Shown here one piece after another: positions 1,111 through 58,846 of a stretch of 64,000 nt of DNA. Within the stretch, counting starts at the first letter, position 1. Every line of letters starts with the position of its first letter. The notes beneath the pieces are model-generated. The model ran no database searches. It was not told the DNA's origin and saw only the letters and a program-made list of their open reading frames with translations. The stretch is taken from NCBI GenBank assembly GCA_943349945.1, contig CALQZS010000002.1, positions 51,278-115,277 of the forward strand, given 5' to 3'. The stretch is from Candidatus Nomurabacteria bacterium. GTDB lineage: Bacteria; Patescibacteriota; Minisyncoccia; Phycocordibacterales; SBAW01. Made by a program: the position numbers and the translations under genes.

Positions 1111-1152
1111 CCCCAGCAAAGCAGTGTGATATACTAATAAGACATTAAATAT

Positions 1153-2208: not shown

Positions 2209-2229
2209 TCAAAAAGACTGGTTAGTTAC

Positions 2230-2265
2230 AAAGGGCGGTTGCTAGAAAGTTAGTGACCGCCCTTT
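2230..2265. terminator. hairpin between convergent genes (aaagggcggt...accgcccttt)
   Basis: A 9-10-bp GC-rich inverted repeat with a large loop, overlapping the 3' end of the minus-strand gene. Confidence 0.4.
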
Positions 2266-2600
2266 GTGCTGGTTACGGCAGTGTATACAATCCACAACAC
2301 CAGCAGCGTTACAACGCTAAATCCAAAAATTGGATGCATAGTGGTGTAGCCAAACCAACTTGCCACAAAACGCGCCGACTCCCAGGCCAAAAAAGCTGCC
2401 AAAGCAATACAAAAACCCCAAGTGGCGCGTACCCGAGCCTCTTCTTGGTGTTCGTTGTGGCCGCTATTGGTAACAAGGTGCCCCACGCCGCCAATAAACC
2501 CGCGCAAGAAGGTTAGAAAACCTATAACCGCATACACGCTTAGCGGTATGCCAACATACAGTAGCGGATTTTCGGCTAAGTTATGCAAAAGGGTATCCAT
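2250..2600 (-). CDS. hypothetical membrane protein (3-4 TM helices)
   Basis: A 116-aa ORF with a hydrophobic profile that lies convergent with the upstream gene. Confidence 0.6.
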   Translation of the reverse strand: MDTLLHNLAENPLLYVGIPLSVYAVIGFLTFLRGFIGGVGHLVTNSGHNEHQEEARVRATWGFCIALAAFLAWESARFVASWFGYTTMHPIFGFSVVTLLVLWIVYTAVTSTKGGH

Positions 2601-2636
2601 AGGCTATAGACAAAGTCATTGTATACTATATCACGT

Positions 2637-3998
2637 ATGCCCCTGCATCATACCGCAGAAAAAATCACCCACTGGTTGGACAGCTGGAATGTGGAGTCAA
2701 TTCTCGTCTCAAGTGCAGGTTTTTTAATATTGTTTGTGATGGCCGTACTTCTTGACCCAAGCGGAGTGTGGAATTTTTTTGTTGCACTTATAACCCTTAT
2801 GCCGTTTTGGCTGCCAGTGTTTCTTTCTATTGTGTTTTGGGTTATTTGGATGCACTACATCCGCTATCTGTTTTGGTTTAGCCACAACTATATAGTGCTC
2901 GAGGTGCAGCTGCCCCAAGAGGTAGAAAAGTCGCCCAAGGCGATGGAGACGTTTTTAACCGCGCTTTGGAATGCGGGTGGCGAGACTACCTTCCTTGCCC
3001 GCATATGGAAGGGCTCATACCGTCCCGTGTGGGCGCTTGAGATCGCCAGCAACGAAGGCAAGGTTGGGTTTTATATGCACATGCGCGACAGTTGGCGCAG
3101 TGTGGTGGAGGCGCGTTTGTACGGCTTGTTCCCCGACGCTAAAGTGTCCGAGGTAGAGGACTATGCGTCTAAAATAAAATTCAACCTCGACGAATATGAT
3201 TTGTTTGGCGCTGAGTATCAAAAACCTAGCTCAAACCCACACGCTCTGCCCATTAAAACCTACGTAGACTTTGGAATGGACAAAGATCCTAAAGAAGAGT
3301 TTAAAATCGACCCACTCGCCAACCTTATCGAGCTCTTGGCCCAAGTGGGCAAAGACGAGCATTACTGGTTCCAGATTGTGTTCCGTACCCGCAAAAAAGA
3401 CGAGTGGTACGGTTTTTACTTGCCAGGGGATGCATACAAAGACAAAGGCAAGGCAGAAATCCAAGCTATTATGGCCGGCGCCGCAAAGCGCGCCCAAGAT
3501 GTACTCAAGGCATCTGAAGTGGTAGAAGGGAAGGTGAGTTCGCTTTTGACCGATGGAGAAAAAAGGCGCGTGGACGCAATAGAGCGCAGTATGTCCAAAC
3601 TAGTGTTTGAATGCGGCTTCCGTGTGCTGTATTTAGCAAAAAAAGACCGTTTTAACGGCATCAATATACCCCAGTTGATACAGTTTTTTGCGCCGTTTAA
3701 CGGAGAAGGCTACGAACACAACCGGCTACACGTAACCCGTGGTATGGCCTTTTTTGACTACCCTTGGCAAGACTACAAAGACAGACGTAAACAAAAAATA
3801 AAGGAGCAGATTTTCTTTTTTTACAAACATCGGGCATACTTTTATGTGCCGTACGACCAGGAGCCATCTTTTCTGACTGTCGAAGAATTGGCAACGCTGT
3901 GGCACTTCCCAGGGTCGAGCATCAAAACACCAGGGCTTAACCGTGTGGCTGCACGCCGCGCCGAGGCGCCTCCCAATTTACCAACCTTACCTTCTTGA
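2637..3998 (+). CDS. hypothetical membrane protein (N-terminal TM helices plus a large soluble domain)
   Basis: A 454-aa ORF from ATG 2637 (the ORF track starts at TTG 2619). TATACT lies at 2622-2627, 9 nt before the ATG. No confident family assignment was possible. Confidence 0.65.
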   Translation: MPLHHTAEKITHWLDSWNVESILVSSAGFLILFVMAVLLDPSGVWNFFVALITLMPFWLPVFLSIVFWVIWMHYIRYLFWFSHNYIVLEVQLPQEVEKSPKAMETFLTALWNAGGETTFLARIWKGSYRPVWALEIASNEGKVGFYMHMRDSWRSVVEARLYGLFPDAKVSEVEDYASKIKFNLDEYDLFGAEYQKPSSNPHALPIKTYVDFGMDKDPKEEFKIDPLANLIELLAQVGKDEHYWFQIVFRTRKKDEWYGFYLPGDAYKDKGKAEIQAIMAGAAKRAQDVLKASEVVEGKVSSLLTDGEKRRVDAIERSMSKLVFECGFRVLYLAKKDRFNGINIPQLIQFFAPFNGEGYEHNRLHVTRGMAFFDYPWQDYKDRRKQKIKEQIFFFYKHRAYFYVPYDQEPSFLTVEELATLWHFPGSSIKTPGLNRVAARRAEAPPNLPTLPS

Positions 3999-4011
3999 TG
4001 TCTTTTGTTGT

Positions 4012-5022
4012 ATGAAAAAACAAGTAACGCATATCGGCGAAGTGTGTAATGAGTGGTGCCAAGAGTGGCGCATGTATGACCGCGTACTGCCGCTAGGGCT
4101 TTTGGCGGGGGTGCTACTGTTCCTTTTGTACTTTGTAACCATCTCTGCGCCACTGAACTTTCCTGGAGCCACGTACGTTAAGGTACCCAAAGACCAAAGC
4201 TTTGACGAAATCGCCCAAAACCTAGAGGAGCGCAACATCATCCGCTCGCCGCTGGCATTCCGTCTGTTCGCACGGCTCTATGGCCCACAAACACACCTGA
4301 TGAGCGGAGAGTACTTTTTCTCGGAGCCTATAACTGTAGTGGGTGTGGCGCGGCGACTGATGCGCGGCGATTTTGAATTGCTGCCCATTAAAGTAACCTT
4401 GCCCGAAGGCACCACCGCACAGCAAATGGCCGAGCTGTTGGCCAAAAAGATACCCGATTTTGACCACGAAGAGTTTCTTGAAAAAGCAAAACCAAAAGAA
4501 GGGTACTTGTTCCCCGACACCTACTTCTTTTTGCCCGGAGCCGAGGCAGACGAGGTGCTTGAAGTTTTGGAAGAAAACTTTACTCGCCAAATAAACGACC
4601 CGCGCGTACAAGAGGCGCTTGCAAAGTTCGACAAACCGCTGAGCGACGTTATCATCATGGCGTCCTTGCTGGAAAAAGAGGCAGCAAAAACAAAAGACCG
4701 TCAGATGATAGCGGGCATTTTGTGGAAGCGCATAGACATAAACATGCCGCTGCAAGTTGATGCTGTCTTCCCCTACATTATTGGCAAAAATACATTCAAC
4801 ATAACCAGAGCAGAACTGCGCACCGACTCGCCCTACAACACCTACACCAACAAAGGGCTGCCTATAGGACCCATCGCCAACCCTGGACTCGACTCTATTT
4901 TGGCGGCTATGACACCGGTTAAAACAAATTATCTTTTCTACCTATCCGACTTGAATAGCCAATTCCACTTTAGCCCTACGTACAGCGAACACTTGGCCAA
5001 ACAGCGCAAATACCTACCGTAA
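4012..5022 (+). CDS. mltG: endolytic murein transglycosylase MltG (YceG-like)
   Basis: An N-terminal TM segment and YceG motifs (YLFPDTY, LPIGPIANPG). Start was moved to ATG 4012 to avoid overlap with the upstream gene. Confidence 0.85.
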   Translation: MKKQVTHIGEVCNEWCQEWRMYDRVLPLGLLAGVLLFLLYFVTISAPLNFPGATYVKVPKDQSFDEIAQNLEERNIIRSPLAFRLFARLYGPQTHLMSGEYFFSEPITVVGVARRLMRGDFELLPIKVTLPEGTTAQQMAELLAKKIPDFDHEEFLEKAKPKEGYLFPDTYFFLPGAEADEVLEVLEENFTRQINDPRVQEALAKFDKPLSDVIIMASLLEKEAAKTKDRQMIAGILWKRIDINMPLQVDAVFPYIIGKNTFNITRAELRTDSPYNTYTNKGLPIGPIANPGLDSILAAMTPVKTNYLFYLSDLNSQFHFSPTYSEHLAKQRKYLP

Positions 5023-5025
5023 CTT

Positions 5026-5058
5026 AACTAACCCACAAGTCAGACTTGTGGGTTAGTT
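5026..5058 (+). terminator. rho-independent terminator after mltG
   Basis: A 16-bp inverted repeat (aactaacccacaagtc / gacttgtgggttagtt) followed by a T-rich stretch. Confidence 0.6.
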
Positions 5059-5094
5059 CTGTCGTTTATCACAAAAAAGTGATACGCTCCAAAC

Positions 5095-6162
5095 ATGTTT
5101 TGGCAGAAAAAGAAAAAAGGGACAGTGTTTGTAGGCCTCTCGGGTGGGGTAGACTCCGCCGTGTCTGCAGCACTGCTTCAAGCACAAGGCTACAAGGTGG
5201 TTGGCGTGTTTATCCGCATCAGCTTGCCTGGCTACCCCTGCACAGCCGGGGTCGACAAAATAGACGCCATGCGCGCCGCAGCACATCTAGGGATCCCATT
5301 TTTGGAGGTTGATTTGTCGAAGGAGTACGCCGCACAGGTTTTTGATACTACCCGCACCGAATACGCACACGGCAACACACCAAACCCCGACACGTTGTGT
5401 AATAGAGAGATTAAGTTTGGCGCTTTTTATGACTTTGCTAAAGCGCATGGTGCAGATTTTGTGGCAACAGGACACTACGCACAAACCAAAAACGGCAAGC
5501 TGTATGTAAGCGCTGATGATCAAAAAGACCAGAGTTATTTTTTGTGGATGATACCAGCGCACACTCTGCCGCATGTATTGTTTCCTGTAGGCCATTTGCG
5601 CAAACCTCAAGTGCGCGCTCTTGCAAAAAAATTTACACTCCCCAATGCGTCGCGCAAAGACAGCCAAGGTCTATGCTTTTTGGGTGACATCACCATAGAA
5701 GACATGCTCGCCCGCGAGATACAGCTCGTGCCCGGCCATGTACTCGACGAGCAGGGAGCTGTAGTGGGGCGGCACCAAGGTGTCCAACAATACACGCTGG
5801 GGCAGCGACACGGGTTTGTGTTGCACGCACAAACTCCAGACACCCTCCCGCATTTTGTAGTGAGCAAAGACATGGGCAACAACACACTGACAGTTTCCAC
5901 CAGTCCATATCCAAGTGGTGCGCAAACAACAGAGGTGTTGCTTCGCGAGGTGAATTGGTTAGGCGATGTGACCCCCGGACCATGCGAGGCGCGTTTTCGC
6001 TACCGCCAACCACTTCTTCAGGCAGAGCTTGTAGCAACTGGGCCCGAGGCACGGGTGCGCATACACGCGCCGCGACACATACCCTTGGGGCAATCCTTGG
6101 TGCTCTATAGTGGCGACCGGTGTCTCGGTGGCGGCACCGTTGCACAAACCACACTGCAGTAG
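5095..6162 (+). CDS. mnmA: tRNA-specific 2-thiouridylase MnmA
   Basis: A PP-loop (SGGVDSAV), catalytic Cys residues and full-length similarity to the MnmA/TrmU family. Confidence 0.9.
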   Translation: MFWQKKKKGTVFVGLSGGVDSAVSAALLQAQGYKVVGVFIRISLPGYPCTAGVDKIDAMRAAAHLGIPFLEVDLSKEYAAQVFDTTRTEYAHGNTPNPDTLCNREIKFGAFYDFAKAHGADFVATGHYAQTKNGKLYVSADDQKDQSYFLWMIPAHTLPHVLFPVGHLRKPQVRALAKKFTLPNASRKDSQGLCFLGDITIEDMLAREIQLVPGHVLDEQGAVVGRHQGVQQYTLGQRHGFVLHAQTPDTLPHFVVSKDMGNNTLTVSTSPYPSGAQTTEVLLREVNWLGDVTPGPCEARFRYRQPLLQAELVATGPEARVRIHAPRHIPLGQSLVLYSGDRCLGGGTVAQTTLQ

Positions 6163-6210
6163 TGGATAAGTATCGCGCTTTTGTAACAATAAAAAGCGTA
6201 TACTTTCAGT

Positions 6211-6624
6211 ATGGTAAAGCAGCAGGGAACCGCGATACTTATATTTTTTCTGCTTGCATTATTAGTAGGGTGGTGGAGTTTGCCAGAGGAACACACAAAA
6301 CCATATACTGCCGCACCAACACAGCCCAAAGAGACTCTGCCTATTAAACACACAAGCGCCAGCACGACGCACACCTACAGCGGCGAGCTACCTATGGTGC
6401 GTGACTGTGACTCTTTTTCTACAAAAATAGAGACCGCGCATAAAGAATCTTTGCATGCCACTTTGTCGTTTGTGATTACCACCTCTCACGCCTGCGACAC
6501 CAAAACCGCACCAGCGAGCTTTGCGGTTTCGCTGGCAAGTCAGGGCGCTATACCGCCCACTATTGACCACGTACTCTTAAACGGAAATCCAGTAGCGTTT
6601 CGTATTATAGAAGCGCAGCCATAA
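6211..6624 (+). CDS. hypothetical membrane-anchored or secreted protein
   Basis: A 137-aa ORF with an N-terminal hydrophobic segment. TATACT at 6199-6204 lies 6 nt before the ATG. Confidence 0.55.
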   Translation: MVKQQGTAILIFFLLALLVGWWSLPEEHTKPYTAAPTQPKETLPIKHTSASTTHTYSGELPMVRDCDSFSTKIETAHKESLHATLSFVITTSHACDTKTAPASFAVSLASQGAIPPTIDHVLLNGNPVAFRIIEAQP

Positions 6625-6628
6625 ATCT

Positions 6629-7486
6629 ATGTCTATCTTTGTTGCAAAATCAGATGGCACCACAGAGGCTTTTGACCCTGCTAAGCTGCGTGCGTCGCTT
6701 AAAAGAGCTGGCGCCGTACCGGACGAAATACATAAAGTAGTACAAACCGTAGAGAAAGACCTCTACAGCGGTATCACCACCACCGAAATATACCGCCGCG
6801 CATTCGCCTATTTGCGCGGACACAAACACACCGCCGCCGCACGTTACTCGCTGAAGCGGGCAGTGCTAGACTTTGGACCCTCTGGGTTTCCTTTTGAGGT
6901 ATACATGGCAGAACTTTTTCGCCTAGAAGGGTACAGCGCCTCGGTGGGCCAAATAATCCAAGGCGGATGCGTCGAACACGAAGTAGATGTGGTTTTGTCT
7001 GCAAAAAAATCTACCCCTTTGAGTAAAAAGAAAGATGCCACTAGCACCTACGTCGAGGCCAAATTCCACAACACCCTAGGACTCAAGACCGATCTTAAAA
7101 CAGTGCTGTACGTAAAAGCACGCATAGACGACATTCGTGCTGCAAATCCAGAGAAGCAAATTCGAGGAATGGTCGTAACCAACACCAAGTTTACCGAGCG
7201 GGCAGTCCAGTATGCTTCCTGTGTGGGGCTTGAGCTTTTGGGTTGGGAGTATCCACTTAAGGGCAACTTGCACGACCGCATAGAGGCAGCACAACTGTAC
7301 CCTGTAACCGCACTCACTACTTTGTCTAAAGGAGAAAAAATGGCTTTATTAAACGCCAAAAAAGTGCTTTGTACCGACTTACCCCAAAACACGGACCTTT
7401 TGCAGCAAATAGGCGTACGTGGCAGACGAGTGGACTCAATTTTGGAAGAAGTAGGGACGTTGTGCGTCTCGGGGAAAGAGATATAA
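6629..7486 (+). CDS. ATP-cone domain fused to an Mrr-type (PD-(D/E)XK) restriction endonuclease domain
   Basis: The N-terminus (MSIFVAKSDGTTEAFDPAKLRASLKRAG...) matches the ATP-cone consensus. The central region carries D...EVDVVL...YVEAKF, a PD-(D/E)XK (Mrr_cat-like) motif. Confidence 0.75.
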   Translation: MSIFVAKSDGTTEAFDPAKLRASLKRAGAVPDEIHKVVQTVEKDLYSGITTTEIYRRAFAYLRGHKHTAAARYSLKRAVLDFGPSGFPFEVYMAELFRLEGYSASVGQIIQGGCVEHEVDVVLSAKKSTPLSKKKDATSTYVEAKFHNTLGLKTDLKTVLYVKARIDDIRAANPEKQIRGMVVTNTKFTERAVQYASCVGLELLGWEYPLKGNLHDRIEAAQLYPVTALTTLSKGEKMALLNAKKVLCTDLPQNTDLLQQIGVRGRRVDSILEEVGTLCVSGKEI

Positions 7487-7525
7487 TCGTCGTACGGGCT
7501 CTTATTTACTTTTAACGACGCGCAT

Positions 7526-8155
7526 ATGGATAACAAGAATCAGAATAATCAGAAACCGGGTTTGTCATGGACGCAGCCTGCCTCCGCACCGCAAACAAAA
7601 ATACACGAGCAGCCACAAAAAAATCAAACTGCTCAAACTCCCACTAATGAGTCAAGCAACAGCAAGGTTGTTTGGATCGTCGGCGCCGTGGTGGTTTGTG
7701 TTATAGCAGCGCTTATTTTCATCGGGCAGCGCGACAAGTCTGGCTCCACTGCATCAAATGCCACCACTACTGCTACAAAAACAGAACGTAAAACTGATGC
7801 AACAGAACCTACGACCGTAACCCCCGTCGTTGGCAGCATGGAAGGTTTGACTGTACCGTCTCCTCAAGATGCCGGAATGGAAGTGTTAGTAGAGGTAGAG
7901 TCTGTGCCTGCACCAACTTGGATTGTTGTGTATGAAAACAATAACGGCAAACCAGGCAACGTATTGGGTGCTGCATTCTTTACACAAACGATCAACAGCG
8001 ACTCTGTAAGCTTGCTGCGCGGCACACAACCAGGACGCACTTACTTTGTCGGCAAGACACACGACGACGGCGACCGTAAATATGCACTCGACGTCGACCC
8101 TGTAGTTCGCGACGACGAGGGTAACCCCGTGTTGGTAGAATTTACTACCCGATAA
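7526..8155 (+). CDS. hypothetical membrane-anchored protein (low-complexity N-terminus, single TM)
   Basis: A 209-aa ORF with a Q/T-rich N-terminus followed by a TM helix. Confidence 0.55.
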   Translation: MDNKNQNNQKPGLSWTQPASAPQTKIHEQPQKNQTAQTPTNESSNSKVVWIVGAVVVCVIAALIFIGQRDKSGSTASNATTTATKTERKTDATEPTTVTPVVGSMEGLTVPSPQDAGMEVLVEVESVPAPTWIVVYENNNGKPGNVLGAAFFTQTINSDSVSLLRGTQPGRTYFVGKTHDDGDRKYALDVDPVVRDDEGNPVLVEFTTR

Positions 8156-8158
8156 TAT

Positions 8159-8638
8159 ATGCCTGACTTCACCCAATTCACCTCGTCCTTTGGTTTTGTA
8201 GAAATGACCTTTGCGTGGCGACTTGTGGTTGCTATGGTGCTGGGCGCTTGTTTGGGGCTTGAGCGCTCCTTGGCAGGCAAGCACGCAGGCATGCGCACCT
8301 ATTCACTGGTGTCGCTTGGCTCAGCCACGCTGGTAATTGTAGGGACACTGGCGAGCTATCAGCTGTCTATGTTTTCTGGCGTAAACCCGCTGCAAATTGC
8401 CGGGTCTATAGTCATCGGTATCGGCTTTATCGGCAGTGGCCTAGCAGCATTGCGTGGCGACCATCCCGCAGAGCTCACCACTGCAGCTGGCATTTGGGCA
8501 GTAGCGGCCATAGGCATGGCATGCGGTTTTGGACTCTACATCATCGCTATAACCGCAACAGTACTGAGTATTATCGTGTTTACTTTCTTGTCTAAATTGG
8601 AGTACCGCCTACGTACTCAGTGGGGCAAAGACAATTAA
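8159..8638 (+). CDS. mgtC: MgtC/SapB family membrane protein
   Basis: The N-terminal motif (LVVAMVLGACLGLERSLAGKHAGMRTYSLVSLGSA) is typical of MgtC. Confidence 0.8.
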   Translation: MPDFTQFTSSFGFVEMTFAWRLVVAMVLGACLGLERSLAGKHAGMRTYSLVSLGSATLVIVGTLASYQLSMFSGVNPLQIAGSIVIGIGFIGSGLAALRGDHPAELTTAAGIWAVAAIGMACGFGLYIIAITATVLSIIVFTFLSKLEYRLRTQWGKDN

Positions 8639-8683
8639 CTTCCGCCTACGCGGTTCCTGGCGTACAATAGGTAACACAAACCT

Positions 8684-9520
8684 ATGAGCCAATACTACAA
8701 ACCGCATCGCAAACCAGACTACAACTACGGCGGGCCAAAGTGGACACTGTCGCGCTCGAAGATTGACCTCTTTATGGAGTGCGCCCGCTGTTTTTATATC
8801 GATAACAAGCTGGGCACTGCACGGCCACCAGGGTATCCCTTTAACCTAAACAGCGCCGTTGACGCATTGCTTAAAAAAGAACTCGATACGCACCGCGCAA
8901 ACGGCACACAACACCCGCTGGCAGCAGCTTATGGTCTCGATGCTATACCGCTTGCGCACGCACGGATGGACGAGTGGCGAAATGCGCTGAGCCAAGGCGT
9001 TAAGTGTATCCATAAACCAACCGGCCTCACTGTGCGCGGCGGCGTGGACGATATCTGGATAAACAAAGCGGGCGAGCTTATTGTCATAGACTACAAAGCA
9101 ACTAGTAAGGACGGAAAGATTGAGTCACTGGACGAAGAGTGGCATCGTGGGTACAAACGCCAGCTCGAGATATATCAGTGGCTTTTGCGACAAAACGGTT
9201 TTGCGGTGTCTGATACTGGCTACTGGTTTTATGCAAACGCAACCAAAGACCGCGAAGCGTTTGACGCACGACTCGACTTCGAGCTCACCTTGGTGCCCTA
9301 CACCGGCACCACTGACTGGGTCGACGGAGTGCTTATTGAGCTAAAGAAGTGTCTCGATAGCGACACACTGCCCGATGCGGGCGTTGATTGCGATTATTGT
9401 AAATACCGCAGCGCGGTTGAAACTGTACTTGGCAATAAGCCACAGGCCGCACCAGCGCCTATTCCAGTAGCCGCAAAACAAACCCATGCGACAGAAACCC
9501 CGAACGGACAGCTTTTCTAA
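8684..9520 (+). CDS. PD-(D/E)XK nuclease, Cas4/RecB-like with four Cys (standalone)
   Basis: VIDYK ((D/E)xK) motif, N-terminal CxxC (ECARCFY) and C-terminal CxxC (DCDYCKY). This architecture is like Cas4/AddB-type nucleases. No cas genes lie nearby. Confidence 0.65.
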   Translation: MSQYYKPHRKPDYNYGGPKWTLSRSKIDLFMECARCFYIDNKLGTARPPGYPFNLNSAVDALLKKELDTHRANGTQHPLAAAYGLDAIPLAHARMDEWRNALSQGVKCIHKPTGLTVRGGVDDIWINKAGELIVIDYKATSKDGKIESLDEEWHRGYKRQLEIYQWLLRQNGFAVSDTGYWFYANATKDREAFDARLDFELTLVPYTGTTDWVDGVLIELKKCLDSDTLPDAGVDCDYCKYRSAVETVLGNKPQAAPAPIPVAAKQTHATETPNGQLF

Positions 9521-9803
9521 ACCAGAAAAAGCAGCGAAAGTATTTACCAGCGATTTTGCAAAGCGCGTGTACGCTGTGGTGGCCAAAATCCCCAAAGGCA
9601 AAACCATGACGTACAAGCAAGTCGCCGCCAAAGCAGGGAAGCCAGGTGCCGCGCGGGCAGTGGGTATGTTTATGATGCACAACTACAATCCAAAAATCCC
9701 TTGCCACCGCGTCATACGCTCCGACGGCAAGCCGGCCGGATACAACCGCGGCGGCCCAAGTAGAAAAATAGAAATCTTGCGCGAAGAAGGGTATCAGTTT
9801 TAA
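9486..9803 (+). CDS. ogt: methylated-DNA-protein-cysteine methyltransferase (MGMT/Ogt C-terminal domain only)
   Basis: The active-site motif IPCHRVI is present. The start is uncertain (ATG 9486 overlaps the upstream gene; an alternative GTG lies at 9567). Confidence 0.75.
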   Translation: MRQKPRTDSFSKPEKAAKVFTSDFAKRVYAVVAKIPKGKTMTYKQVAAKAGKPGAARAVGMFMMHNYNPKIPCHRVIRSDGKPAGYNRGGPSRKIEILREEGYQF

Positions 9804-9810
9804 TACACAC

Positions 9811-10482
9811 ATGGACACTATACGCCTTGAAGACTCTTGGAAGAAACATCTGGAGCCTGAGTTTGCGCAATCCTACTTCCAGAAGCTCCGCACCTTTGTG
9901 CACGACGCATACACACAAAGCACCGTATACCCACCGCCCAAAAATCTATTTCGTGCGTTTGACCTATGCCCTTTCGACCAAACAAAGGTGGTGATATTGG
10001 GCCAAGACCCATACCACGGACCAGGGCAAGCAAATGGCCTGTGCTTTGCAGTAGAAGGGGACACGCCGCTGCCGCCGTCGCTGCAAAATATTTTTAAAGA
10101 AATCGAAAAAGAGTACGGCGTGCCTATGCAAAATAAAAACGGCGATCTTTCGCGCTGGGCTGCACAGGGGGTACTGCTTTTAAATGCGACACTCACCGTG
10201 GGGGCACGCTCACCTGGCTCGCACCAGCGCAAAGGCTGGGAAGAGTTTACCGACGCTGCAATACACGCACTATCGAAAGAGCGCGAGGGGTTAGTATTTA
10301 TGTTGTGGGGCAACTATGCAAAAAACAAAGGTGCGCACATTGACCGTAAAAAACATTTGGTGCTTGAGGCGCCACACCCGTCGCCTTTTTCTGCACACAG
10401 CGGATTTTTTGGCTGCGGCCACTTCAAACTCGCGAACGAATATTTAGCCGCGCACGGCAAAAAACCAATTGACTGGCTCTAA
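9811..10482 (+). CDS. ung: uracil-DNA glycosylase (family 1)
   Basis: Motifs GQDPYHGPGQA and HPSPFS. Confidence 0.9.
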   Translation: MDTIRLEDSWKKHLEPEFAQSYFQKLRTFVHDAYTQSTVYPPPKNLFRAFDLCPFDQTKVVILGQDPYHGPGQANGLCFAVEGDTPLPPSLQNIFKEIEKEYGVPMQNKNGDLSRWAAQGVLLLNATLTVGARSPGSHQRKGWEEFTDAAIHALSKEREGLVFMLWGNYAKNKGAHIDRKKHLVLEAPHPSPFSAHSGFFGCGHFKLANEYLAAHGKKPIDWL

Positions 10483-10517
10483 AAAACTAACGTAGTCAGA
10501 CTACGTTAGTTTTTTAC
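10482..10517. terminator. bidirectional rho-independent terminator between ung and pepO
   Basis: A perfect 11-bp inverted repeat (ctaacgtagtc a gactacgttag) flanked by an A-run and a T-run. Confidence 0.75.
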
Positions 10518-10520
10518 TTT

Positions 10521-12473
10521 TTACCAAATATGGGCGCGTTTGGACGGGTCGCGGTAGAGTTTGTCGCCTTTTTTAAGTCCGAAGGTTTTGTAAAATGGCT
10601 CAAAGTTAGCAAGCGGCCCGTTGATACGGAAGGGTGCCACTGCGTGAGGGTCCGTCAGTGCGCGCATTTTGAGCGTTTCTGGCCGCGCAACTTCGCGCTC
10701 CATTTGGGCAAACCCCAAGAAAAACCGCATCTCGGGCGATAGACCGCCGACAATTTTTCGGCCTGCTTTTGCTAAATATTTTTGGTACGCATCATAGGCG
10801 ATAACCAGTCCGCCTAAGTCTGCAATATTTTCCCCCAGTGTAAGTTGACCGTTCAGGTGTATACCCCCCGCCACTTCGTGTGCATTTGCTTGGGCGACCA
10901 CCAGCTTTCCTTTTTTCTCAAACGCTTGTTTGTCTTTTGGAGTCCACCAGTTTTGCATATTGCCCTTTAGGTCAAACTTGGCGCCTTGGTCGTCGAATGC
11001 GTGCGTCATCTCATGGCCAATCACCGAGCCAATGCCCGCGTAGTTCACCGCCATGTCTGCTGTGGGGTCAAAAAACGGCCACTGCAGTATCGCAGCAGGG
11101 AACACAATATCGTTGAGTGTTTGGCTGCAGTACGCATTGACCGTCTGCGGCGACATAAACCATTCGCTGCGGTCGACACCTCGAGCAAGCTTACGCATCA
11201 TTTTTGCATAGTCGTGGGCATGTATGCGCAAACCGTTACCAAAATAGTCGTCTGGAACAATCACCACTCCTTTGTACAAATCCCATTTAGTAGGGTAGCC
11301 AATTTTACGGGTCATGGCGCGCAGCTTGGTGATGGCTTTGCGTTTGGTCGCCACACTCATCCAGTCGAGCTGCTGCATCCGCTCTGCATACACAGAAAAC
11401 AAATCGCTCACCAACTGATCGATTTTGTGCTTCGCTTCTTTGGGGAAGTAACGCTCGACGTACAACTTGCCAAGGGGCTCGCCCAAAGCTGCGTTGGTCG
11501 ACATGAGCGCGCGGCGCCAAAGGGGCTTCATCTTTTTGACCCCATGCAGCACGCCCGAGTAAAAGTTAAACTGCTCGGTCACAAACGCTTGCGACAACCC
11601 GCCACTCATATCGTTGAGCAAGTGCCAAGTCAGGTATACTTTCCAATCCTCCAGCGGGATCTCTTTGAGCATCTTTTGTGCCTCTGCAAAAAACTTTGGC
11701 TGGCCGACAATAACTTTTTTGACCACAGGCGCACCCATAAGTAACAGGTATGACTTCCAAAAAGCACTAGGTGTAACTTTGTGATAGACCTTGTGTGGGT
11801 CGCGCACGTCTTCTTTAGACATAGACGCCTTTGCCAGCGCGGTTTCTATATCCAGCACCACTTTTTGGGCACGTGCAATTTCGGCAGGCTTAAAGCCGGC
11901 GATTTTGAGCAGGTTTGCTATGTAGACTACGTACGCATCACGTACACGCTTCTGTTCGGGCTTGTTTTCTAGATAGTAGTCGCGCTCAGGCAACCCCAAG
12001 CCTCCTTGCCACAAATGCAAGATGTAGGCAGCGCTGTTTTTGGAGTCTTGGTCCACAAAAAAGCTCCACACACCAGAAACGCCGGCCTTGTGCAAAAAGG
12101 CAATAGTTTCTACGAGCTCTTTTTGAGATGAGATGTTTTCTATGCGACGCACAAAATCCCACAGCGGCTTAGTGCCAAGCTTGTTGCGGCGCGGCATATC
12201 AAACGCCGAGCGGTAGTAGTCGGCAATAAGTTGCTCGGGTGTGCCTTTTTTGTGATTTTGTTTGGCCAACAGCTCGTCTACAATTACTTTGAGCTTTTGT
12301 TCTGTCTCGACACGCAAGGTGATAAAGCTACCCCAGCGCGCCTCGTGTGGAGGGATTTTGGTTTTCTTGACCCAGCCGCCGTTGGCGTAGCTATAAAAGT
12401 CATCTTGCGGCCGGACGGCGATGTCTATACCCTTAGCATCAAAACCCCACCAGTTTTTACTCTGTTTTTGCAT
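10521..12473 (-). CDS. pepO: M13 family zinc metalloendopeptidase (PepO/neprilysin-like)
   Basis: Motifs HEMTHAFD (HExxH) and ENIADLGG, with M13 family length and layout. Confidence 0.9.
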   Translation of the reverse strand: MQKQSKNWWGFDAKGIDIAVRPQDDFYSYANGGWVKKTKIPPHEARWGSFITLRVETEQKLKVIVDELLAKQNHKKGTPEQLIADYYRSAFDMPRRNKLGTKPLWDFVRRIENISSQKELVETIAFLHKAGVSGVWSFFVDQDSKNSAAYILHLWQGGLGLPERDYYLENKPEQKRVRDAYVVYIANLLKIAGFKPAEIARAQKVVLDIETALAKASMSKEDVRDPHKVYHKVTPSAFWKSYLLLMGAPVVKKVIVGQPKFFAEAQKMLKEIPLEDWKVYLTWHLLNDMSGGLSQAFVTEQFNFYSGVLHGVKKMKPLWRRALMSTNAALGEPLGKLYVERYFPKEAKHKIDQLVSDLFSVYAERMQQLDWMSVATKRKAITKLRAMTRKIGYPTKWDLYKGVVIVPDDYFGNGLRIHAHDYAKMMRKLARGVDRSEWFMSPQTVNAYCSQTLNDIVFPAAILQWPFFDPTADMAVNYAGIGSVIGHEMTHAFDDQGAKFDLKGNMQNWWTPKDKQAFEKKGKLVVAQANAHEVAGGIHLNGQLTLGENIADLGGLVIAYDAYQKYLAKAGRKIVGGLSPEMRFFLGFAQMEREVARPETLKMRALTDPHAVAPFRINGPLANFEPFYKTFGLKKGDKLYRDPSKRAHIW

Positions 12474-12526
12474 ATATACGGTGGATAATACCCTAAATAC
12501 TCAAATCTTGGTAAGATAGAAACACT

Positions 12527-14437
12527 ATGACATTGGACGAGGTGCGGGCAAAATACTTGGCGTTTTTTAAGGAGCAGGGGCACGCAATTATCCCCAGCTC
12601 TTCTTTGGTGCCACAAAACGACCCGACTACTCTTTTTACCGGCTCGGGGATGCAGCCCCTGGTGCCGTACCTTTTGGGCAAAAACCATCCTGCAGGGTCG
12701 AGGCTCGTGGACTCGCAAAAATGCTTCCGCTCGATGGATATTGAAGAAGTAGGGGACAACCGCCACACTACTTTTTTTGAAATGTTGGGAAACTGGTCGC
12801 TCGGAGATTATTTTAAACAAGAACAGTTGCGTTGGTTTTTTACTTTTTTGACCGACAAAGAAAAAGGGATAGGGCTCGACCCAGCACGCCTGTATGTCAC
12901 CGCATTTATTGGCGATAAAGCAAATAATGTGCCACAAGATACAGAATCTGCAGAGCTATGGCAGAAACTTTTTAGCGAAAAAGGTGTTGAAGCAAACGTG
13001 GTCGAAATAGGCTCAGAAGCAAATGGATACACCGTAGGGATGCAGGGCGGGCGTATTTTCTATTACGATGCAAAGAAGAACTGGTGGTCGCGTGCGGGCG
13101 TGCCCGAAAACATGCCTGCGGGCGAGCCAGGAGGCCCAGACTCGGAAGTATTTTATGAGTTTACCGATATCGAACACGACCCTAAATGGGGCGCACAGTG
13201 CCACCCAAACTGCGATTGCGGCCGCTTCCTCGAAATTGGGAACTCTGTGTTTATGCAGTACATCAAGCAGGAGGACGGCTCTTTTGCGCTGCTTCCTAAA
13301 CAAAACGTCGACTTTGGCGGCGGTTTGGAGCGTATTGTTGCCGCATCAGAAAACTCATCGGATATTTTTAAAACAGGCACACTTCACGTACTTGTAGAAC
13401 ACATACAAAAGAGTGCGGCGGTTGCATATAATTCCAGCAAAGAAGCGACTGCTGCGTATCGTATTATTGCAGACCACGTCCGCGCAGCATCATTTCTTAT
13501 TGCCGACGGCGTGCTGCCATCCAACACTGACCGTGGATACTTTTTACGCAGACTCCTTCGTCGTAGTGTGCGCTATGCAGACAAACTTGGCTTGCCCGCA
13601 GGCTATTTAGCATCGCTGTACGCCACAGTGGGGCAACAGTACGCAAATCATTATCCCGAATTAGAGGAGGATAAGCACGAAATTATTGCAACCGAAGAAG
13701 CCAAGTTTCGAGAGACACTTGCGCGAGGAATGAAAGAACTCGAGCGTTTTGTTGGACAAGGCTCTTTGTCCGCTCAGGATGCATACCAACTTGTAACAAC
13801 CTATGGCTTTCCGCTTGAGTTGGTTATCGAAGAAGCAGGGGAGCGTGGAATCAAACAAATCGATATGGACGGCTTTAAGGAGCTACTCAAACAGCACCAA
13901 GACCTTTCCCGTGCAGGTAGCGAGCAAAAGTTTAAAGGCGGCTTGGCCGACACATCAGAAGCCACCACACGCCTGCACACTGCGCACCACCTGCTTCTTA
14001 AAGCACTTCAAACGGTGCTCGGGCCCCATGTAAAGCAGCGCGGCTCAAACATTACCCAAGAACGTTTGCGCATCGACTTCTCACACGGCGAAAAAATGAC
14101 CGACGAGCAAAAGGCTGAAGTAGAGCGTATCGTCAACGAAAAAATAAAAGAGGATATCCCTATGATCCGCTCCGAGATGGCAAAAGAGGAGGCAGAGAAG
14201 CTGGGTGCCGAGCACGAGTTTGGTGCAAAATACCCAGACCGCGTGTCTGTCTATTCACTCGGGCCAAAAGAAGCTACAGAGGACAACCCTATGCACGAGC
14301 AAGCATTTTCTATCGAGTTTTGTGGCGGCCCGCACGTTGCCCACACAGGCGAGCTGGCGCAGTCTGGTGTCTTTAAAATACAAAAAGAAGAAGCGGTTTC
14401 TGCCGGCGTACGCCGTATCCGCGCAGTGTTGCAATAA
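12527..14437 (+). CDS. alaS: alanyl-tRNA synthetase (catalytic plus editing domains, no C-Ala domain)
   Basis: A class II AlaRS N-terminal core and an editing domain with HxxxH and CGGPHV motifs. Only 636 aa. Confidence 0.9.
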   Translation: MTLDEVRAKYLAFFKEQGHAIIPSSSLVPQNDPTTLFTGSGMQPLVPYLLGKNHPAGSRLVDSQKCFRSMDIEEVGDNRHTTFFEMLGNWSLGDYFKQEQLRWFFTFLTDKEKGIGLDPARLYVTAFIGDKANNVPQDTESAELWQKLFSEKGVEANVVEIGSEANGYTVGMQGGRIFYYDAKKNWWSRAGVPENMPAGEPGGPDSEVFYEFTDIEHDPKWGAQCHPNCDCGRFLEIGNSVFMQYIKQEDGSFALLPKQNVDFGGGLERIVAASENSSDIFKTGTLHVLVEHIQKSAAVAYNSSKEATAAYRIIADHVRAASFLIADGVLPSNTDRGYFLRRLLRRSVRYADKLGLPAGYLASLYATVGQQYANHYPELEEDKHEIIATEEAKFRETLARGMKELERFVGQGSLSAQDAYQLVTTYGFPLELVIEEAGERGIKQIDMDGFKELLKQHQDLSRAGSEQKFKGGLADTSEATTRLHTAHHLLLKALQTVLGPHVKQRGSNITQERLRIDFSHGEKMTDEQKAEVERIVNEKIKEDIPMIRSEMAKEEAEKLGAEHEFGAKYPDRVSVYSLGPKEATEDNPMHEQAFSIEFCGGPHVAHTGELAQSGVFKIQKEEAVSAGVRRIRAVLQ

Positions 14438-31671: not shown

Positions 31672-32350
31672 TAGGGGTGGCGAGGGTAGTAGGATTTCCA
31701 CCTACAACTCCGGGTCCCGAACCTGGCGTTTTGTTTTAAACTACACCCCCAAAAGAAGCTTGCTTTACCTGAAGATCGCTTCGATCATGGTTTGGAGTTT
31801 TTCGGCTAGACTCTTAAGTTTTCTTTTTAAACTTACGGGGACTACCCGCATCACCGAGTGGCTGGATACAGTCGCTGAAGCATCGTTCGCAAAGACGCTG
31901 TGCGTCTGTTTTATGATATATTCTCGTGATAAACGGGTTACTACCCCCAGAGAACAACCCATTGATGGTGTTCAGATCGGTCAGTGCTGCAATAGCTGCA
32001 GATGCCGAACGGTACAGGGATGGTGTTTTCGCAGTACTTCTCGACACCTGCAAAGGCAGTGGATTCGGTACCCCAAAGACATGCGCGAGCGGAGTCGGCT
32101 CACCTTTGGTGCAAAATCCGTCGAGACACAGAATGATCCTGCCGGATTCATCCCTCACACACAGCCGCAATCCTCTAGACTCAGTCCCGCGTGGTTCTGT
32201 CCAACAGGGCAGTATCTGCAACACCCATCGCTTTACCGTAGACCCCGCAGCAACGTGGAAATGGGTGGTTACTCCTTCACGAGGAGAGACGCGCGGCATG
32301 TTCATAACGAACCCCTTTCTTGTTCAACTAAAATCACAATACATACTAAA
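31672..32350 (-). other. GC-rich apparently non-coding island, candidate structured RNA of about 0.7 kb (identity unresolved)
   Basis: Long ORFs appear in five of six frames but with non-protein-like composition. GC3 is not elevated and rare codons are present. A minus-strand promoter-like TTGACT...TATGTA lies near 32350-32380 and a minus-strand terminator at 31642-31671. Confidence 0.4.
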
Positions 32351-56799: not shown

Positions 56800-58080
56800 C
56801 TACTCCAACCTGTTTGAAACCTCTAAGTGAGATTCTTTTTTGGGGAACATCTCCCTCCAGATTTGTTTAAATTTATCTAGACGCGTGGGCATTGGCGCCG
56901 CCAGCGGGTGCGGGTCGAGGTTGGGCATCACCTCCATTTGCGGTGGCGCCTCTTGGTAGTCCCACAGCGCTTGCAGTGCCGCAACCACCTCTTGCGGACT
57001 TGCCATGACCATTTGGGTCATATACAAGCTCGAGTTAACCCGGAATATCTCGCGTTGCGAACTTTCGTTGGTGCGCATAATAGCTGCAGACAAGGTGGCA
57101 GGCGACGCGTCGGGCACCACAAGACCATTGACCCCGTCTTTAATAAGCGCGTGCGTTATCTTGGTATCCACCGCGATAATGGGTGTGTGTGCCGCCGCAG
57201 CGCGGATAAAAGCATCTTCGTTTTCTTCGCCGCCAGAAAGATATAAAAAGATGTTGGCGGTTTTAAGACACGACACCAACGCCTGCGCATCTTCAAAATG
57301 TACCCACGAGCGGAGTCCACGGATCCACGCACGCAGACGCCACCACCATTTACTCCCACCCAACGCGACCACAATCAGCCCAGCTTTTTGATAGGACGGA
57401 TTTGCCCGCAGCAGCGCCAACGTACCCAAAGCGGCAGAGAGCTTTTTTTTGCTCCCCAATGTCGTAGCAACTAATAATGAAAAATTTATCTCTGGGTATT
57501 TTTGTTTAACATCAAATAGTAGTGGTTCTTTGTCTGCACTTTCAGTATCGTATAAACGCGGGAATACAATTATTTTATCTTCATGATGTGCCGCGGTTAC
57601 AGACAAGTACAGTCGGGTTATATCCGAAAAAATACAGATACGGTGTGCAAGCGGCAACACCAGGGACAGTGGCATGGCCCCAAAAAAACTCAGTGGTTGG
57701 CGAAATGCGCGGGCACCCCACTCGTAGGTGCGGATGTTAACCACCCACACCTTGTCGTACCAAAACGCGAGCCACGCCCCTGCCCACCCGCTGGCACGCA
57801 CATCGTCGGAGTACACCACGTGCGCGCGGAACTCCTTTTGCCACGACACCTGAAAGCGCGCCGTGCGCATCATGGACAGTGCTTTAAATCCGAAAAATGA
57901 ATTGGTGGGATATATCCATGCGTGGTCGTTGAGCTTTTTTGTTTGGAAGCCGCTTCCGCGCCTAGTCCACACCACCACATGCAGCACATCTGCGGCACTA
58001 ACCAAGCCGTCGAGAAATTTCTGCTCTTTGCCGCCTTCTTTTAAAAACTCGGTGTTGGTGGTCAAAAACAACACGTGCAT
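56800..58080 (-). CDS. glycosyltransferase family 1 (GT4-like)
   Basis: C-terminal GT1 motif (PIIAVDTKITHALIKDGVNGLVVP). Start is at MHVLFLTTN (ATG 58080), with TATACT 6 nt upstream on the minus strand (58087-58092). The R/K-rich ORF-track extension was rejected. Confidence 0.8.
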   Translation of the reverse strand: MHVLFLTTNTEFLKEGGKEQKFLDGLVSAADVLHVVVWTRRGSGFQTKKLNDHAWIYPTNSFFGFKALSMMRTARFQVSWQKEFRAHVVYSDDVRASGWAGAWLAFWYDKVWVVNIRTYEWGARAFRQPLSFFGAMPLSLVLPLAHRICIFSDITRLYLSVTAAHHEDKIIVFPRLYDTESADKEPLLFDVKQKYPEINFSLLVATTLGSKKKLSAALGTLALLRANPSYQKAGLIVVALGGSKWWWRLRAWIRGLRSWVHFEDAQALVSCLKTANIFLYLSGGEENEDAFIRAAAAHTPIIAVDTKITHALIKDGVNGLVVPDASPATLSAAIMRTNESSQREIFRVNSSLYMTQMVMASPQEVVAALQALWDYQEAPPQMEVMPNLDPHPLAAPMPTRLDKFKQIWREMFPKKESHLEVSNRLE

Positions 58081-58234
58081 AGCTGTAGTATACCCCCAAA
58101 ACTGGCGGCGGGTCTTTTGCCCTCTCTTCCCTTTTCTGCTATGCTGTGTTCGTGCTGGTTTTGGCCCTAGGCGCTTCGCGCGTAGGACCTCGCTCGCTCG
58201 CATAAGAGAACAAGCTCTCTTTGCTCACTCGCTC

Positions 58235-58306
58235 GGCCCTATCGTCTAACGGTTAGGACAGCGCCCTCTCACGGCGTAAATTGGGGTTCGATTCCCCATA
58301 GGGTCA
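58235..58306 (+). tRNA. tRNA-Glu (anticodon CUC)
   Basis: Cloverleaf: acceptor GGCCCTA/TAGGGTC, D-arm GTCT-AACGGTTA-GGAC, anticodon stem GCGCC/GGCGT with loop CTCTCAC, T-arm TGGGG-TTCGATT-CCCCA, discriminator A. CCA is not encoded. Confidence 0.8.
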
Positions 58307-58318
58307 TGGATAAAAGAA

Positions 58319-58347
58319 AATACCGCCATAGTGCGGTATTTTCTTTT
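58319..58347 (+). terminator. rho-independent terminator after tRNA-Glu
   Basis: aataccgc catagt gcggtatt hairpin followed by TTCTTTTGG. Confidence 0.7.
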
Positions 58348-58444
58348 GGCCAATATGATCGCCCTAAGGCGAGAATCGAAAAGCGCAGGCGTGACGACGC
58401 CGAGCCGGGGTCGCGAGATTTTCCAGCAGGAAAATACTTGTGAC

Positions 58445-58461
58445 CGATTCCCCATAGGGTC
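58445..58461 (+). repeat. 17-bp direct repeat of the tRNA-Glu 3' end (CGATTCCCCATAGGGTC)
   Basis: Identical to 58289-58305 (T-loop through the acceptor 3' strand). This looks like an att-site-type scar. Confidence 0.6.
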
Positions 58462-58512
58462 GCAAGCGAGTTTGCTGACGAGCAAATTCGACTTGTGACC
58501 ACAAACAAAAAG

Positions 58513-58585
58513 TTATCCCCAGTTTTCCTTACGAAGGTCAGTCCTTCGACGAAGGACTGACCTTCGTAGAGGGAGTTGTGGATAA
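58513..58585. repeat. 73-bp palindromic module, copy 2: TTATCCCCA - N10 - 35-bp palindrome - N10 - TGTGGATAA
   Basis: Same architecture and spacing as copy 1. The palindrome cgaaggtcagtccttcg a cgaaggactgaccttcg lies at 58532-58566. Confidence 0.7.
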
Positions 58586-58621
58586 GTCGAAAAAGGCACA
58601 AAGGTAGGAAGAGCAGGAAAA

Positions 58622-58846
58622 TTGGTATACTGGCGGTATATGGATCACAAAAGACTCTACAAAAGCGACACGAACAAAGTATTTGCCGGAATTTGCGGTG
58701 GGTTTGGGGAGTATCTAAACATCGACCCAGTACTCTTGCGTGTGGTGTGGCTGTTGGTGGTTATCTTTACTGGCGTAGTCCCTGGAGTATTGGCCTACAT
58801 TATTGCCGCATTTATAATCCCCAACCACACCCACCACACCAACTAG
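58622..58846 (+). CDS. PspC domain membrane protein
   Basis: KRLYKSDTNKVFAGICGGFGEYLNIDPVLLRVVW matches the PspC domain. Confidence 0.75.
   Translation: MVYWRYMDHKRLYKSDTNKVFAGICGGFGEYLNIDPVLLRVVWLLVVIFTGVVPGVLAYIIAAFIIPNHTHHTN

Follow-up and report, generated by a model that had tools for sequence, protein, structure and literature searches.

The window analysed here, 64,000 nucleotides of contig CALQZS010000002.1 from a Candidatus Nomurabacteria bacterium, contains a tRNA-Glu gene whose 3' end is repeated a short distance downstream. The comparisons reported below argue that the 139 bp between the two copies are a terminator-like hairpin and a three-way-junction module, conserved and covarying, and not the decayed or excised remnant of an inserted element, as the sequence-only reading of this locus had suggested. 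The gene, tRNA-Glu(CUC), lies at 58235..58306 on the + strand (ARAGORN; Rfam RF00005, 60.7 bits) and does not encode CCA. The repeated 17-mer, CGATTCCCCATAGGGTC, corresponds to tRNA positions 56-72, that is, the 3' part of the T loop, the 3' strand of the T stem and the 3' strand of the acceptor stem; copy 1 (58289-58305) comprises the last 17 nt of the tRNA ahead of the discriminator base, and copy 2 occupies 58445-58461 on the same strand. The repeat is exact, as originally described. These two matches are the only ones in the window (repeat family D1), against 0.09 expected by chance and a count of two reached in 0 of 100 shuffles, and the search for further copies that had been proposed found none in the 64 kb with up to 3 mismatches allowed. 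The edges of the repeat are sharp: GTT|17-mer|A in the tRNA, GAC|17-mer|G in copy 2. Their first bases are separated by 156 nt.

The interval between them had been described as about 140 bp carrying two hairpins. The length is right, but we find at least four helices: S0, P0, P2 and P3. They belong to a spacer of 335 nt between the tRNA and the next gene, pspC, which as a whole is exceptionally structured (minimum free energy -152.7 kcal/mol, z = -13.3). Immediately behind the tRNA comes S0 (58307..58352, +), an inverted repeat (I3) with 20-bp arms, AAAAGAAAAUACCGC/GCGGUAUUUUCUUUU, and a U tract behind it; it resembles an intrinsic terminator for tRNA-Glu, the hairpin and its UAUUUUCUUUU tract being visible although a simple consensus terminator scan called none. 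Immediately 5' of the module proper lies P0 (58359..58372, +), a short hairpin of sequence UCGCC-CUAA-GGCGA. The latter, which we term unit Ub (58373..58453, +), is predicted to fold as a three-way junction. The 5' strand of its closing helix P1, GAAUC(G), lies at 58373-58377(8); joining strand J1/2, AAAA, leads into P2 (58383-58405), made of P2a (58383-84/58404-05), a 3x2 internal loop GCA/GA and P2b (58388-92/58397-401); J2/3, CGG, leads into P3, or H3 (58409-58445), a hairpin containing G.U wobbles that abuts P1; and the 3' strand of P1, GAUUC, lies at 58446-58450, with CCC continuing to 58453. In this predicted fold copy 2 of the 17-mer is thus accounted for: it consists of the last base of P3, the 3' strand of P1 (GAUUCCCC) and a tail, AUAGGGUC, reaching to 58461, whose letters are those of the tRNA acceptor 3' strand. 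The two strands of P1 both derive their sequence from the tRNA, the 5' strand being the inverted complement of T loop plus T stem (GAAUCG in the window, GGGGAAUCG in relatives) and the 3' strand a direct T-loop/T-stem copy (CGAUUCCCC in relatives) followed by the acceptor 3' strand. Downstream of the unit, H4 (58458..58500, +; GGUCGCAAG...CUUGUGACC, repeat D7) is an orphan hairpin of the P3 type, with the same foot as H3 (GGUCGCRAG/CUUGUGACC) and a different tip; the same hairpin forms P3 of a further unit in two related loci, L001 and L156, and we therefore take H4 as the remnant of a second module in the window.

The leader of tRNA-Glu also resembles part of the gene. About 90 nt long, it opens with GGCCCTA...TAGGAC (58163-58199), a degenerate copy of the tRNA 5' half offset upstream by the length of one tRNA (repeat D3); locus L004 has a comparable hairpin in its leader, GGCCCTATAC...GTATAG, and locus L005 another partial copy of the tRNA 5' part, CACTCGGCCCTATAATCTAGCG. 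Taken with copy 2 of the 17-mer, the leader copies mean that partial tRNA copies lie on both flanks of the tRNA-Glu gene.

P1 is invariant because it is tied to the tRNA sequence. In P2 and P3, sequence varies from unit to unit while pairing is kept: segmentation of the units by hand gave 276 Watson-Crick pairs, 19 G.U pairs and 2 mismatches. An alignment of full units with MAFFT was structurally wrong in the variable arms, so we used instead the cores of nine units, 55 columns, with the variable arms trimmed by hand along the predicted folds; in this alignment, whose trimming biases pair counts towards structure, 96.5% of pair cells are paired, compared with 74.3 +/- 2.3 in shuffles (0 of 500 reach the observed value), both sides have changed in 11 of the 19 pairs, and the covariation score is 0.64 against 0.18. 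As a control, sliding the partners by 1-3 columns left 25-43% paired. Individual positions tell the same story—one P2b pair is A-U in L001, G.U in L154 and G-C in L157, and the G.U at position 5 of P3 is present in 12/12 hairpins of the GC-rich type, even where the adjacent pairs have switched. The P0 counterpart in L005, UUCCU-GGG-AGGAA at the same place, is compensatory too. Of 7 units compared on both strands, 6 gave the better fold on the + strand.

Relatives of the locus were collected through homologues of the glycosyltransferase (GT) upstream of the tRNA, through homologues of MurF, by searching genomes for the 17-mer outside tRNAs and by a metagenome scan for the tRNA 3' end; they are numbered here with the prefix L. 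The MurF homologues bear source names such as Candidatus Adlerbacteria, Kaiserbacteria and Paceibacterota, which places the organism among the Paceibacterota, within the Candidate Phyla Radiation. The same architecture recurs behind tRNA-Glu in seven Paceibacterota lineages, in one to three copies and with different P2 and P3 sequences. It is always directly 3' of the tRNA gene and on the same strand. Carriers are L007, identical to the window; L001, whose GT is 92% identical to that of the window and which has three or more units, including two incomplete ones; L005 (GT 66%), interrupted where its contig stops; L015 (= L026 = L027), a Paceibacterota metagenome-assembled genome (MAG) with two units; L023, with one; the AT-rich contigs L022 (= L030), with one unit, and L032, with one plus a degenerate one, both behind another tRNA-Glu variant; and L154-L161 and L164/L165. 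The same topology is predicted in L001, L015, L023, L022, L032, L157 and L159, and units of differing sequence share the junction: that of the window, L001 Ua, L015 U1 and U2, L022, L032, L157 Ua, L159 Uc and L023. The consensus fold of complete units has P1 as GGGGAAUC(G)/(C)GAUUCCCC, J1/2 as GAA(A), J2/3 as GG and P3 next to P1; its P2 has a base of 2-4 bp, an internal loop 5'-GNA/5'-RA and a variable arm. In relatives, an S0-like hairpin of differing sequence comes after each full copy of the tRNA 3' end; that of L005 is about 92% conserved with S0.

Variants of this plan are seen. L015 and L023 have a longer P1 5' strand, reaching to CCCUAUGGGGAAUCG and giving a stem that resembles an acceptor-T minihelix, and their tRNA 3' end, terminator and inverted copy form a single long near-perfect palindrome. 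In L032 some 115 nt are duplicated in tandem. Loci of the AT-rich type (L022, L032) have no terminator between tRNA and module, and in L022 a terminator follows the module. Complementarity of the 5' strand to the tRNA T loop (GGGAAUCGAA) is kept even in units whose 3' strand is not complementary. Distal units are truncated or degenerate (L015 U2, L023, L032 unit 2, H4 in the window). No module stands behind tRNA-Glu in L021 and L025, which both have the tRNA of the window, or in L028, L031 and L020. Locus L024 (Ga0315539_1002054, 251-13325) packs about 40 tRNA genes into 13 kb; its tRNA-Glu(UUC) has the 23-nt 3' end in common, and no module lies behind it.

Comparing relatives for presence or absence, as had been advised, proved informative: polymorphism falls exactly at this locus, with L021 and L025 lacking the module and L154-L159 differing from each other. 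Behind tRNA-Glu genes that share the 5' half and 3' end of the window's tRNA, we collected 12 different sequences. An identical MurF protein, P0012, is encoded by at least 21 contigs, which provide a comparison among near-identical strains, and among these at least five arrangements follow the same tRNA. L154 has tRNA-S0'-Ua, truncated by a deletion at a 9-bp microhomology, GGTCAGGCG; L155 and L158 have tRNA-cassette-S0'-Ua, the cassette (816 bp, with a 216-aa open reading frame (ORF) that has no Pfam match) being inserted exactly behind the tRNA's GGGTCA, with another GGGTCA after it, and L154 being the matching empty site; L156 has tRNA-S1'-'mid' unit-H5-pspC; L157 has tRNA-S-P0-Ua-ORF95; L159 has tRNA-S-P0-Uc-H4-H5-pspC; and L004 with L160, from one assembly, show the L159 arrangement with a recombinase element in front. 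Among strains otherwise nearly identical, then, modules are present, absent, truncated or re-assorted. The terminator (S) hairpins and the junction cores assort independently, and the break points between arrangements coincide with conserved strands, namely the 5' strand of P1, the P3 foot and the 17-mer. Several metagenome contigs end inside the array (L001, L003, L005, L153, L160-163), as expected if the locus varies within populations. By these sequence comparisons we recognise the locus as a tRNA-linked recombination and integration hot spot. In L164/L165, genes for a zeta-toxin and an MNT-like nucleotidyltransferase (7900-9314) lie beside an inserted element upstream of an S-P0-Ud array; these are toxin-antitoxin-type cargo at this hot spot.

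From species to species, single modules resemble each other much more closely than does their flanking DNA. Between L001 and the L154/L156/L157 group, identity is 69% for the GT proteins and, at the nucleotide level, 58% for the tRNA leaders, whereas S0'+Ua matches at 118/123 positions and Ua at 107/110 between L001 and the L154/L157 loci, and S1'+mid unit at 129/130 between L001 and L156. H3 plus P1 of the window matches L164 at 45/47 positions, with pspC at 84%; for H4, agreement with the copies in L001, L156 and L159 extends to 41-43 of 43 positions. The stretch of 85 nt that follows the tRNA shows 80% identity between the window and L005, whereas no alignment of their leaders is possible. 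The long shared blocks depend on L001, a short-read contig, and L001 and L005, both of this kind, might be chimeras joined at the identical tRNA; H3 and H4 were compared on long contigs with unique genes on both sides.

In relatives, elements that carry a recombinase use this tRNA. In L004, the gene for a 519-aa large serine recombinase (LSR) with Resolvase, Recombinase and Zn_ribbon_recom domains (L004 145-1960) abuts the 3' end of tRNA-Glu and is flanked by inverted repeats of about 125 bp. In another lineage, L020, a different LSR (84-1133; 22.6% identical to that of L004) converges on and abuts tRNA-Glu(CUC), apparently a case in which this tRNA end was adopted independently as attB. When L004/L160 (filled) is set against L159 (empty), the crossover maps to the CA at tRNA positions 72-73 or directly beside it, the junctions reading GGGTCA-CA-ATCATC... 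and ...TACTCT-CA-CAGGTATCG; the ORF211 cassette is located at the same point. The start of L160, which belongs to the same assembly as L004 (GCA_964693605.1), is the reverse complement of the sequence after the L004 LSR gene, where contig L004 ends, and the internal L004/L160 junction reads as an inverted attP, suggesting a composite or inverted insertion. The att-like appearance of the repeat thus pointed correctly to a site of integration, used by LSR elements in relatives, but these enzymes do not make the repeat: the filled- and empty-site junctions rule them out as its source. The absence of an integrase, remarked on from the start, also holds—neither between the copies nor elsewhere in the window is there an LSR by tblastn or any integrase that we found, in a screen not exhaustive for tyrosine integrases—and a tblastn match of the L004 LSR at 58272-58343 is an artefact, the called ORF reading through the tRNA on the opposite strand.

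Our preferred reading of these data, held tentatively, is that the modules are small non-coding cassettes that recombine with the tRNA-Glu 3' segment from T loop to acceptor. Copy 2 of the 17-mer would then perhaps mark the 3' boundary of a non-coding cassette of about 156 bp (S0, P0 and P1/P2/P3) placed directly behind tRNA-Glu(CUC). The cassette would recombine with the tRNA gene inside the T-loop-to-acceptor segment that they have in common, the exchange being either site-specific, with the enzyme supplied in trans, or driven by homology. Since it brings its own ...CGATTCCCCATAGGGTCA and terminator, insertion would regenerate an intact tRNA gene with a terminator, and the older 3' end would be displaced downstream, leaving a direct repeat like attL/attR; the terminator-like hairpin behind each full copy of the 3' end is as such regeneration predicts. 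The newest unit would adjoin the tRNA, older distal units would decay, and recombination between repeats would remove or shuffle units. The conserved fold, strand bias and invariant G.U would reflect a requirement of the recombination machinery or of the element's own RNA; for example, a single strand might fold so that its P1 recreates, as a duplex, the site in the tRNA gene.

Several observations weigh against it. The tail after P1 ends variably between units (...CCC|, ...CATAG|, ...GGGTC|), which fits recombination at homologies or microhomologies followed by decay at least as well as a fixed crossover, and the S hairpins and junction cores assort separately. The LSR elements cross over at the terminal CA without duplicating the 17-mer and so do not explain the repeat, and the window offers no recombinase within the scope of the screen just described. 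IMG/VR yielded 0 exact matches to the 17-mer, and no copy turned up in free, circular or phage-borne form; with a 14-mer from the junction motif, only chance matches were seen there among the matches listed, judged without inspection of the loci. Non-tRNA copies of the 17-mer in GTDB species representatives, sought with a restrictive pattern, numbered 10, of which a single one, L015, is tRNA-adjacent and a true array; the nine others are in unrelated taxa with no tRNA nearby and were treated as chance. The structural bias of the pair counts and the possible chimerism of L001 and L005 count here as well.

The main rival is that the module is a new structured non-coding RNA (ncRNA), expressed by read-through from the promoter of tRNA-Glu or from a weak promoter of its own, and that the repeat is a functional tRNA mimic and not a recombination junction. 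We think this rather unlikely, though it deserves serious consideration. The closing helix and tRNA-like tail might borrow 3'-end processing or stabilisation, or bind tRNA-Glu or a tRNA-binding protein, with the variability contributed by the neighbouring hot spot. Covarying helices and the invariant G.U are what an RNA would show, as are purine-rich junctions and internal loops (GAAA, GNA/GA, tandem GA), the greater stability of the + strand in 6/7 units and the constant placement on the tRNA strand. The AT-rich loci L022 and L032, which lack a terminator between tRNA and module, with that of L022 behind the module, favour it as well, and so do the persistent complementarity of the 5' strand to the T loop and the minihelix-like stems of L015 and L023. 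The GC-rich type, however, interposes the strong terminator-like S hairpin and has no consistent promoter motif ahead of the module. The tail is truncated at differing points in many otherwise intact units and so is not required; the module is dispensable, being absent from L021 and L025 with the same tRNA, is swapped among near-identical strains and has no Rfam match; and the downstream genes differ between loci (pspC, greA, others), so that it is not a cis-regulator of any one gene.

RNAs derived from tRNA trailers or bearing tRNA-like 3' modules, such as the 3'ETS-leuZ sponge RNA and the minihelix of the mascRNA precursor, are like the units in occupying a tRNA 3' trailer region and reusing T-stem and acceptor sequence, which by analogy could be read by tRNA-processing enzymes. 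They differ in that a terminator usually intervenes here and acceptor pairing is absent from many units, that of the window included; Rfam models of this type of RNA gave no match beyond the tRNA itself. More broadly, no Rfam 15 family was recovered from the window at the gathering threshold, from 58150-58700 at E up to 10 or from five relatives at E up to 1: only the tRNA and chance miRNA-like matches on plain hairpins appeared. A hammerhead ribozyme, brought to mind by the three-way junction and the GAAA, needs CUGANGA, GAA and H around three stems and was rejected, since the junction strands here are GAA(A), GG and none and Rfam gave no match. C/D and H/ACA guide RNAs, a mimic of the S15 site, an RNase P external guide sequence, the omega-RNA of TnpB/IscB and the homing spacers of CRISPR-associated transposons (CAST) offer analogies only, as we could demonstrate a defining feature of none of them in the units.

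A bolder version of the recombining-cassette reading would make the modules protein-less mobile cassettes, or mobile ncRNA genes, of bacteria of the Candidate Phyla Radiation, in which the folded T-arm/acceptor mimic, P1 on its three-way junction, serves as attachment site in a mechanism like that of integron attC or CTX phage, the tRNA being regenerated and arrays exchanging small membrane-protein cassettes between species. We consider this doubtful. Its basis is analogy with attC and with the XerCD-dependent attP(+) of CTX-phi: there as here the fold is conserved while sequence and tip length vary, one strand is favoured, a fixed non-Watson-Crick feature is present and arrays are interspersed with small-ORF cassettes (ORF95, pspC and ORF211 in relatives); a stem rebuilds the duplex site and the newest unit stands by a fixed site, as P1 and the unit next to the tRNA may do. 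The differences are substantial, for the units have no IntI or attI, a three-way junction in place of a bulged hairpin and the tRNA T arm as target; reading the units, we found neither RYYYAAC/GTTRRRY cores nor an adjacent integrase.

That the repeat is a plain attL/attR scar, left by a tyrosine-integrase or other element that has lost all but about 140 bp and in which hairpins are incidental, is improbable. A repeat from T loop to acceptor end is the classic identity block of tRNA-targeted integration, mobile elements use the site in relatives, and presence/absence polymorphism is found. In an element that had merely decayed, though, the architecture between the copies would hardly be conserved, with compensatory changes, across divergent lineages differing in GC content and neighbours; the covariation result largely refutes the scar. 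The module moreover recurs in tandem and is near-identical between species with diverged flanks, no plausible ORF or integrase remnant occurs in the 139 bp, and the only recombinases seen at the tRNA, the LSRs, do not create the repeat. Nor is there support for the alternative in which the partner repeat belongs to a larger island reaching back to 54.3 kb: the order L21-RmuC-YqeY-GT is syntenic in every relative recovered (L001, L004, L005, L008), the check for a GC discontinuity found no step across 50-64 kb, and the 17-mer has no further copy.

Compared with the attL/attR of tRNA-targeted elements and gene-less CIMEs (cis-mobilizable, att-flanked), the locus is similar in that a repeated tRNA segment flanks an insert polymorphic among relatives, the tRNA stays intact and arrays can build up at the same tRNA. 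It differs in its insert, a non-coding folded module of about 140-215 bp with a variable right boundary and no known cognate integrase. The marks of an integrase island are thus divided: the repeat and a present/absent insert with intact empty site are found, and an integrase in the insert, foreign composition and cargo genes are not.

We give similarly little weight to functionless palindromic debris, produced when slippage or fold-back duplicated the tRNA 3' end and terminator in tandem or inverted form, with unequal crossing-over thereafter and palindromes copying themselves. The long near-perfect palindromes of L015 and L023, the tandem duplication of L032 and the deletion at GGTCAGGCG in L154 look like products of such events, but they would leave perfect, decaying stems, not independent sequences with the same junction, GNA/RA loop and fixed G.U, and the + strand bias and 96-99% identity across species would go unexplained. 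REP/BIME, PATE and MITE elements are likewise short, palindrome-rich, non-coding intergenic mosaics with terminal inverted repeats, here GGGGAATCG...CGATTCCCC, which reach about 20 bp in L015 and L023. The modules differ in not being dispersed—all copies in the relatives' contigs lie behind tRNA-Glu and the 64 kb hold no other—and in lacking both a clear target-site duplication beyond the tRNA segment and an associated transposase. A second tRNA or pseudo-tRNA, which copy 2 with its T-stem and acceptor 3' strands and a GGGG upstream might suggest, is very improbable: the repeat is indeed part of an independently folding structure, which comes near an outcome named at the outset as one that would overturn the scar, but ARAGORN finds one tRNA only, the permissive Rfam search of 58150-58700 finds no second, and the predicted fold, a three-way junction of tetraloop-capped arms without anticodon or D arm, is not that of a canonical tRNA.

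Thus no known system that we compared passes as a match for the modules, and we found no description of them in the literature. If appearances hold for the modules, tRNA hot spots in the tiny genomes of Paceibacterota would contain not just integrase islands but also a family of non-coding elements of 100-200 nt under structural selection. These would reproduce a stretch of the tRNA, pass from one species to another and go along with exchanges of genes for small membrane proteins. They would be candidates for a new class of structured RNA or a new kind of attachment site, and a marker of strain-level variation in organisms not yet grown alone. Because short-read assemblies break at the locus, its content is under-sampled in MAGs.

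The array lies among housekeeping genes, in the window those for DnaB, RecR, L21, RmuC, YqeY, a GT4 glycosyltransferase, the tRNA, a PspC-domain protein, MurF, a penicillin-binding protein and MraW. The GT4 gene (56800..58080, -) is the syntenic core gene upstream of the tRNA. Its database protein, P0001 (467 aa), uses an ATG at 58203; homologues start at MHVLF, 58080, which is probably the true start, and the N-terminal 41 residues of P0001 look non-coding. The first gene past the array, pspC (58640..58846, +), encodes a 68-aa membrane protein with a PspC domain (Pfam PF04024, 1.4e-21); in some relatives it is absent or replaced by other small membrane ORFs. Upstream of it lies the palindrome H5 (58513..58585, +; inverted repeat I1, 36-nt arms), which travels with pspC in relatives and probably belongs to the pspC cassette and not to the tRNA-linked module. 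The H5 core, GGTCAGTCC/GGACTGACC, points one way in L156 and L164 and the opposite way in L159; the window has both in tandem. Ahead of pspC (58626-58642) and of the GT gene (58080-58100, -), a TATACT box stands 6-8 nt before the ATG and there is no Shine-Dalgarno sequence, which suggests leaderless mRNAs for both. In relatives, a motif, ATGCTACACTTA, precedes the gene that follows pspC and also marks a cassette boundary.

Elsewhere in the window, Rfam detects a tRNA missed by ARAGORN at 31681-31750 (-; 47.1 bits). It has no 3'-end repeat module and is followed by a clean terminator. By eye it looks like tRNA-Pro(CGG), with CCA encoded, an odd D arm (GTTTAAAACAAAAC), a T loop of TGGAAAT instead of TTCRANT and two G.U pairs in the acceptor stem.

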